This document shows, one piece after another, positions 45,487 to 47,593 of a stretch of 64,000 nt of DNA. The position numbers and the translations under genes were made by a program. The stretch lies in sequence record MZ417521. One strand, 5' to 3'. The notes beneath the pieces are model-generated. The model was not told the DNA's origin, ran no database searches, and saw nothing but the letters and a program-made list of their open reading frames with translations. This DNA is from Escherichia phage 132. Every line of letters begins with the position of its first letter. The stretch's first letter is position 1.

Positions 45487-46347
45487 TTACACCGCCATTT
45501 TTCCTTTAATAGGAGGGTGTGATTCGTAACCTTTAAGAACGAAATCTTTAGGCCTGAGTTTAAGAACATATTTTAATTGTTCTTTAGTAGAAAGATGACG
45601 GAATTTATAAGGCAATCCGCCTATTACCAGTTCACAAAGCTCTTTAGGTTCACGACGTAAAATTTCTTTACATTGTTCAACGTGATTCATATAGATATGA
45701 GTATTACCGCCAGAAAATATCAAATCTCCAGGAATAAGATTACACATCTTAGCTACAATATGAACTAACGCAGCATATGATGCAATATTAAATGGAAGAC
45801 CGAGGAAAACATCTACTGATCGTTGATACCACTGTAAATCCAAATAGCCATTACGCACATTAAACTGATAGAACATGTGACAAGGCGGTAATGCCATTTG
45901 CTTGAGTTCAGCTGGATTCCATGCTGAAACAACTTGACGTCTATCATTTGGCAGTTTTTTAATACGATCAATAACTTCTACAATTTGGTCTACACCGCCA
46001 AAATCACGCCATTGTTTTCCATAAATTGGACCAAGTTCACCGCTATGGTATCCTAAATCTTTTGCTTGATTTTCGTAATTTTCATCCCAGACTGTTTTGC
46101 CTTGAATTAATGAATCATGCTGAATTAATCGTAAATCATTTACGTTAGTACTTCCTGACAAAAACCATATTAGCTCAGCAATACAAGCTTTCCAGGCGAG
46201 CTTCTTAGTCGTTACTGCAGGAAAACCTTTAGTTAAATCCCAGCGTAATTTAGTACCGAACAAAGCAATTGTTCCTGTGCCTGTTCGGTCATCGGTTTCA
46301 TAGCCATTTTCAAAAATGTCTTTAATTAAATCTTGGTATTGTTTCAT
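45487..46347 (-). CDS. td: Thymidylate synthase, uninterrupted (no group I intron)
   Basis: 286-aa continuous ORF; conserved TS motifs including active-site PPCH. Confidence 0.95.
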   Translation of the reverse strand: MKQYQDLIKDIFENGYETDDRTGTGTIALFGTKLRWDLTKGFPAVTTKKLAWKACIAELIWFLSGSTNVNDLRLIQHDSLIQGKTVWDENYENQAKDLGYHSGELGPIYGKQWRDFGGVDQIVEVIDRIKKLPNDRRQVVSAWNPAELKQMALPPCHMFYQFNVRNGYLDLQWYQRSVDVFLGLPFNIASYAALVHIVAKMCNLIPGDLIFSGGNTHIYMNHVEQCKEILRREPKELCELVIGGLPYKFRHLSTKEQLKYVLKLRPKDFVLKGYESHPPIKGKMAV

Positions 46348-46392
46348 TTAGTACCTTATATAAATTATAATACATTTTATGAAGCTAAATAA

Positions 46393-46755
46393 TCAATACG
46401 GTTTAGCATCAAATTTTCTTTCAATTTCAGGCGTGAAATACAATTCTTTACCGCGTTTGGAAAAGCGACCAATAATATGATAATTATTCTCATCAAACGT
46501 AATATTGCCAATATCCATAGCTTTCAACCAAATATCGATATTTCTATCCAGTTTTATATCAAAATTCCAATACGGAGAACTATTACCGAAAATACTGCAA
46601 GCGGATTCAGTGCAATAACTGCTGCTATAAATCTTGTCTTTGGGAACTACTAATTGATAGACGCCTTTGATAAACTGAGGACCCTGCCATTTTGGTTGTT
46701 TCGCGTCTTTTTCTAATAGAATAGGATAATAATTAAAGTTCATATTTTCCGCCAC
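46393..46755 (-). CDS. Hypothetical protein inserted between frd and td
   Basis: 120-aa ORF in a position where frd and td abut in T4 as recalled. Confidence 0.6.
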   Translation of the reverse strand: MAENMNFNYYPILLEKDAKQPKWQGPQFIKGVYQLVVPKDKIYSSSYCTESACSIFGNSSPYWNFDIKLDRNIDIWLKAMDIGNITFDENNYHIIGRFSKRGKELYFTPEIERKFDAKPY

Positions 46756-46763
46756 GCGTTATT

Positions 46764-47593
<830 letters not shown>

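Follow-up and report, generated by a model that had tools for sequence, protein, structure and literature searches.

A small gene of T-even phages, td.1, is probably an old resident of the frd–td junction that was deleted in phage T4

td.1, a small gene between the dihydrofolate reductase gene (frd) and the thymidylate synthase gene (td), is probably an old resident of this junction, represents the majority state in Tequatrovirus and was very probably deleted in T4 and a few of its relatives. We studied it in a 64,000-nucleotide stretch of the genome of Escherichia phage 132 (MZ417521), hereafter called the window. The gene is already known, as a catalogued hypothetical gene with a simple presence/absence polymorphism. 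As T4 is the reference genome of the group, the overlap of its frd and td genes has been taken as the norm, although it is apparently derived. Annotation or comparison that relies on T4 only misses two genes that most relatives keep, td.1 and an ORF of 81 aa upstream of frd.

Gene order at the frd–td junction

The window is a segment of a Tequatrovirus genome with its early genes on the minus strand, and in the td.1 region it shows 99.9% identity to Escherichia phage vB_EcoM_SP1. The junction contains the following features (window coordinates).

47348-47593, minus strand: 81-aa ORF upstream of frd (phrog_3183), overlapping the frd start codon by one base
46764-47348, minus strand: frd, dihydrofolate reductase, 194 aa (Pfam DHFR_1, 1.3e-18; phrog_316), upstream neighbour of td.1
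46759..46770, minus strand: upstream copy of a direct repeat, TAAATGAAATAA in gene orientation, at the frd stop
46393-46755, minus strand: the td.1 ORF of the program-made ORF list, GTG start, 120 aa
46748..46753, minus strand: predicted td.1 ribosome-binding site GGCGGA, 4-5 nt before the ATG at 46743, from reading of the sequence
46393..46743, minus strand: td.1 coding sequence, 116 aa from the conserved ATG (PHROG 1928)
46348-46392, minus strand: td.1–td spacer, 45 bp from the td.1 stop to the td start
46339..46350, minus strand: downstream copy of the direct repeat, TAAATGAAACAA, at the td start
45487-46347, minus strand: td, thymidylate synthase, 286 aa, uninterrupted, downstream neighbour of td.1

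The td product matches Pfam Thymidylat_synt over residues 2-286 (5.3e-96), and the GTG of the listed ORF follows the frd stop after only 8 nt. A preliminary description of this DNA had placed an ORF of about 120 codons (46393-46755) and a 45-bp spacer (46348-46392) between frd and td, a layout that our analysis reproduces. It had also stated that in T4 the frd stop overlaps the td start; this is the case in NC_000866, where the overlap is 4 nt (ATGA) with no ORF between the genes, and a check of the T4 junction for the ORF found it absent. Its remark that td has an upstream region of its own is likewise correct. The 45-bp spacer carries an AAGG ribosome-binding site that belongs to td.

td.1 is a conserved gene of the PHROG 1928 family

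The GTG that opens the listed ORF is not kept in Mosigvirus phage OLB35, which has CTG at this position. The ATG at 46743 and the GGCGGA before it were conserved in a comparison that included OLB35, GGCGGAAAAT is conserved in T2, SP1 and OLB35, and the ATG is the annotated start in the vB_EcoM_SP1 and T6 records. As the GTG is not conserved, the ATG and GGCGGA are, and other records annotate the ATG, the td.1 product most likely consists of 116 aa beginning at ATG 46743.

Compared with T2, T6, Lutter and OLB35, the gene has 10-36 synonymous and 2-11 non-synonymous differences, with dN/dS of 0.025-0.040. Public data hold a cluster of 100% identical proteins with 154 member sequences (P0001). 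The ORF matches phrog_1928 with E=1.3e-33 (residues 8-116 of the 120-aa ORF, profile positions 2-125 of 126), and the GenBank records of T6 (AY262134.2) and T2H (AY262132.2) name the gene td.1, with the product 'hypothetical protein'. The homology and HMM searches that the preliminary description had proposed lead to a PHROG 1928 member already catalogued under this name. Homologues in hundreds of phages and the low dN/dS argue against a chance ORF, and td.1 is evidently a real protein-coding gene of this family. In four records (MZ501089, MZ501106, NC_054937, PQ571308), GenBank labels of 'putative homing endonuclease' or 'putative glucose-1-phosphate adenylyltransferase' were unsupported by our library searches.

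Distribution and synteny of td.1

DNA of the 416-bp interval between frd and td occurs in 363 phage records, in 362 of which at least 80% of the interval is covered; carriers include T2, T6, RB3, RB6, RB27, RB32 and RB51. Empty junctions of the T4 type, counted with a 40-nt junction probe, were found in 35 records (T4 isolates, RB55, RB59 and a few relatives), and those of the RB69 type in 142 Mosigvirus-type records. Within Tequatrovirus, the junction filled with td.1 is thus about ten times commoner than the T4-type empty one, whereas in Mosigvirus the empty junction is the majority state (142 records versus about 14-17 with td.1).

At the protein level, tblastn matched 584 records, 222 of them below 60% identity; these more distant matches come from phages of Klebsiella, Enterobacter, Citrobacter, Salmonella, Serratia, Erwinia and Kosakonia. 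Family members lie directly after frd in Kanagawavirus 305, Jiaodavirus PKO111, Moonvirus Merlin, Gelderlandvirus Melville and Mosigvirus OLB35, as well as in Edwardsiella phage PEi20 and four metagenomic contigs. By taxonomy lines, the slot after frd is occupied in six genera including Tequatrovirus, usually with overlapping stop and start codons, and in all 15 contexts examined (the window and 14 others) the family sits between frd and td. The relatives in other genera and contigs show 30-46% identity and all belong to PHROG 1928, as did 23 of 23 aligned relatives matched against phrog_1928. In the same phages, amino-acid identity to the window is 33-46% for td.1 and 45-48% for frd; this similar divergence fits a long co-residence of the two genes.

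A HMMER scan of 1.84 billion representatives yielded only 23 clusters at 50% identity. The genuine homologues, 95-130 aa long, each have a single domain and show no fusions, and two longer proteins among the clusters (P0039, P0043) were rejected as repeat artefacts. We found no td.1 paralogue elsewhere in the window and no family member in a six-frame translation of the whole T4 genome.

Several contexts contain tandem td.1 paralogues before td, the second copy carrying a 17-residue insertion (ALVxQGxxPTIxxxKRNPxxY). A second td.1-like gene lies between td.1 and td in the Kanagawavirus (L005, 2817-3176), Moonvirus (L007, 2787-3134) and Gelderlandvirus (L008, 2809-3156) loci, and one metagenomic phage (L014) has the second type only.

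The preliminary description had called the ORF a lineage-specific insertion. The label fails, as 363 records including T2 and T6 carry the DNA and the same slot is used in other genera of Tevenvirinae; the synteny comparison that it had suggested, with the family after frd in many genera, speaks against its own reading. The td.1 family would instead have long resided in the nucleotide-metabolism operon, with the frd–td slot as its probable home within Tevenvirinae.

The 420-bp difference between the window and T4

The window and T4 differ at this junction by 420 bp bounded by a direct repeat, TAAATGAAA(C/T)AA; the repeat search returned 12 nt, 11/12 identical, at a spacing of 420 nt. The upstream copy includes the frd stop TGA (46764-46766) and an orphan ATG-AAA-TAA (46759-46767), and the downstream copy includes the td start ATG (46345-46347) and td codons 2-3. 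In gene orientation, the two junctions read as follows.

Window: ...GTGTA TAAATGAAATAA CGCGTGGCGGAAAAT ATG(td.1)...TGA...AAGGTAC TAAATGAAACAA TACC...
T4: ...GTATA TAAATGAAACAA TACC...

Removing exactly one repeat period from the window thus gives the T4 junction. Both T4 and RB69 have a single repeat copy, the downstream one, fused to the end of frd. The frd gene of T4 is of the same allele type as that of the window. Next to it, about 200 bp are missing in T4 from the 81-aa ORF upstream of frd, whose 5' and 3' ends are retained. As these remnants are still present, the T4 locus has demonstrably suffered deletion, and the loss of the 81-aa ORF appears to be a second T4-specific deletion at the frd locus. 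This ORF had no match in Pfam; in T2 it is found at 97.5% identity and is unannotated in AY310907.

Together, the outgroups, the single repeat copy and the deletion remnants next door indicate that the frd/td overlap of T4 is very probably a deletion scar and that T4 is the derived form, a polarity that we infer and do not claim to prove. The empty majority in Mosigvirus and the lateral acquisition of the frd-td.1 block by OLB35 (see below) weigh against it. T4 and a small set of relatives would have lost the 420 bp between the two repeat copies by recombination or replication slippage, and this deletion would have put the td ATG onto the frd TGA, giving the overlap seen in T4. The repeat itself is in large part forced by the C-terminus of frd (YK-stop) and the ATGAAA start, and chance microhomology is a plausible account of it. 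In the window, the orphan ATG upstream shares the td.1 reading frame, and in phage Lutter it does not, which makes it weak evidence for an ancestral coupled start.

Spacer and expression

T2, T6, Lutter and SP1 have almost the same 45-bp spacer, and its counterpart in OLB35 is only 13 nt long. On the minus strand, from 46396 down to 46367, there is a sigma-70-like match (TTGATT, 18 nt, TATTAT; 9/12 positions), and such matches are no more numerous in this region than in shuffled sequences. A promoter is annotated in the spacer in the Lutter record, and a putative MotA-type middle promoter (AGCTTCA, then 12 nt, then TAATTT) may also be present there. Rfam gave no match for the spacer, and its predicted RNA fold is unremarkable (z = -1.6). 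We infer that td.1 is translated from the frd-td transcript through its own GGCGGA site, and that the spacer would provide td with a ribosome-binding site of its own and possibly with a promoter.

Mosaicism and lateral exchange around frd

Within frd, a patch of about 200 bp (about 46950-47150) shows 62-72% identity to T2 and T4 and 94-96% to Mosigvirus OLB35, and its flanks are 97-100% identical to T2. This patch looks like a gene-conversion tract. OLB35 (locus L010) in turn carries a Tequatrovirus-type block of the 81-aa ORF, frd and td.1 in a Mosigvirus-type td/nrdA.2 background. At the nucleotide level, the frd of this block is 94-96% identical to that of the window, and the frd of RB69 45-68%. 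The RB69 gene (locus L020) is a very different allele, coupled directly to td. OLB35 has acquired its frd-td.1 block laterally, so td.1 does pass from genome to genome by recombination.

Alternative explanations for the origin of td.1

The preliminary description had envisaged an insertion into a T4-like coupled frd/td junction, specific to this lineage, that brought in an accessory or anti-defence gene. Both T4 and RB69 have the clean coupled junction that such an event presupposes, the 11/12 repeat around the segment fits insertion with target duplication as well as it fits deletion, and the segment could be viewed as a cassette with its own ribosome-binding site that supplies a new upstream region to td. 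However, the rarity of the T4-type empty junction, the filled junctions of the outgroups and the deletion remnants beside frd in T4 speak against this direction of the event. With td.1 in 363 records, its family at this site in six genera or more and a divergence that roughly tracks that of frd, we regard such an insertion as improbable. The anti-defence component draws on the likeness of a small, uncharacterised and variably present gene to many anti-defence genes, but the dN/dS of td.1 is without the fast evolution common in counter-defence genes, and the gene has no match in any annotated library searched. No match to td.1 or its paralogues was found in Pfam, NCBIfam or PADLOC, of which the PADLOC result covers defence proteins and not their inhibitors. 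Td.1 may still have an anti-defence role, although none of these searches supported one. A transposon- or IS-type insertion was considered separately and rejected: a direct repeat is present, no terminal inverted repeats were found around the 420-bp segment, and td.1 is its sole ORF.

It has also to be considered whether td.1 and its flanking regulatory sequence form a mobile cassette that is cut out and put back repeatedly at gene boundaries via short repeats, with filled and empty states both arising often. Direct repeats at both borders, filled and empty junctions side by side in two genera and the laterally acquired block of OLB35 would all agree with this, and it would resemble the PeSL-mediated modular shuffling of T4-type phages; PMC2839356 documents indels bounded by repeated regulatory motifs in these phages. 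Yet the td.1 repeat represents the context of a start codon and no promoter-stem-loop, the segment lacks terminal inverted repeats, the unremarkable fold of the spacer offers no help, and the only promoter-like match lies in the downstream spacer, whereas a PeSL cassette would have an early promoter and a stem-loop at both borders. Moreover, the family was found nowhere other than between frd and td in the 15 contexts, and in OLB35 the transferred piece is a larger block including frd, as ordinary homologous exchange would produce. Such a cassette is accordingly quite improbable. A free-standing homing endonuclease, as td.1 is annotated in phages KarlGJung and TadeuszReichstein, is in our judgement extremely improbable. 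Two GenBank records carry this label and the T-even td/nrd region is rich in such genes, but a Pfam search of 23 members with E up to 1 gave no GIY-YIG, HNH or other nuclease domain, no LAGLIDADG, GIY-YIG or HNH catalytic motif is recognisable, and the family has no invariant Asp, Glu, His or Cys. Td.1 is also short (116 aa, versus 141-245 aa for the intact T-even endonucleases annotated in these loci), and structure searches led to barrel folds, not nuclease folds. The related suggestion of the preliminary description, that the ORF belongs to an intron or homing hot spot, finds no footing in the td gene either. In T4 and T6, the I-TevI group I intron adds about 1017 bases to td at the site that corresponds exactly to 45798/45799; the window td, like that of T2, has no intron. 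As td.1 is found both with the intron (T6, RB3) and without it (window, T2), and its protein has no nuclease motif, we reject a link between the two. An old td.1 that was deleted in T4 and a few relatives is the reading that we retain.

The Td.1 protein and its possible function

No variation was seen across 23 sequences at Q16, W19, G27, Y29, G92, R93, F94, K96 or G98, and at least 90% of the sequences have F103; the family motifs QxKW, G(I/V)Y and GRFxKxG...F are all present in the window Td.1. The isoelectric point ranges from 6.0 to 9.5 across the family. An AlphaFold2 model built from the 23-sequence alignment (mean pLDDT 80.6, pTM 0.76) contains eight strands, one helix (69-77) and a long C-terminal hairpin (87-105) that bears the invariant GRFxKxG. 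The only part of the model below pLDDT 50 is a loop in which the window gene is one codon longer than that of T2, T6 and Lutter (46606-46620 of the window, around td.1 residues 42-46; YSSSYCTES versus YSSCFTES). A Foldseek search of the model against the PDB returned nothing below E = 0.3, a PDB-sequence profile search gave a single chance match (E = 0.5), and BFVD matches were restricted to uncharacterised proteins of T4-like phages. On the model, Td.1 would be a small, non-enzymatic beta-barrel of roughly 13 kDa, neutral to basic and possibly OB-like. The aromatic and basic residues that it conserves hint at a binding surface.

Our literature search found no functional study of td.1. We tentatively propose that Td.1 may be a binding module, with a partner in the DHFR/thymidylate synthase/dNTP-synthesis machinery or with single-stranded nucleic acid as its ligand, a proposal that we consider possible and no stronger. 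The guess at an accessory binding protein comes from the strict DHFR–thymidylate synthase synteny, the strong constraint and the gene overlaps in most genera, which suggest translational coupling. As DHFR and thymidylate synthase work without Td.1 in T4 and in the 142 RB69-type phages, it is not a required subunit. It would raise fitness in nature and be dispensable in the laboratory, as T4 has no copy anywhere in its genome. A more specific and unlikely version is that the family is an OB-like, non-catalytic adaptor in the thymidylate cycle of the phage, expressed alongside DHFR and thymidylate synthase, that would bridge both enzymes or tether the dNTP-synthesis complex to ssDNA/gp32 at replication forks. 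If this were true, the loss from the model phage T4 would explain why such an adaptor was not discovered earlier. In T2 and T6, td.1 offers a cheap and well-defined target for knock-out and pull-down experiments that ask whether it encodes an accessory protein of the thymidylate machinery.

Comparison with known systems

The closest known system is the Td.1 of T6 and T2H, which is the same gene in the same place between frd and td and encodes a 97% identical protein; the window gene differs by one extra codon (116 versus 115 aa). Among structural systems, the candidates for comparison are the OB-fold domains that bind single-stranded nucleic acid or protein (RPA, SSB, PriB, Teb1, S1), whose fold is a closed barrel of five strands with a helix between strands 3 and 4; Foldseek against the PDB gave no match below E = 0.3. 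The PeSL shuffling and short-repeat deletions of T4-type phages (PMC2839356) likewise involve the presence or absence of small ORFs and a short direct repeat at gene boundaries. A PeSL consists of a promoter and a stem-loop, whereas the borders of td.1 are formed by a 12-nt translation-start context, where no significant stem-loop was found. The T4 junction (NC_000866) has the same flanking genes and is identical in sequence apart from the missing segment. In T4, the absence of the 420-bp segment leaves td translationally coupled to frd, whereas the td of the window has an independent ribosome-binding site.
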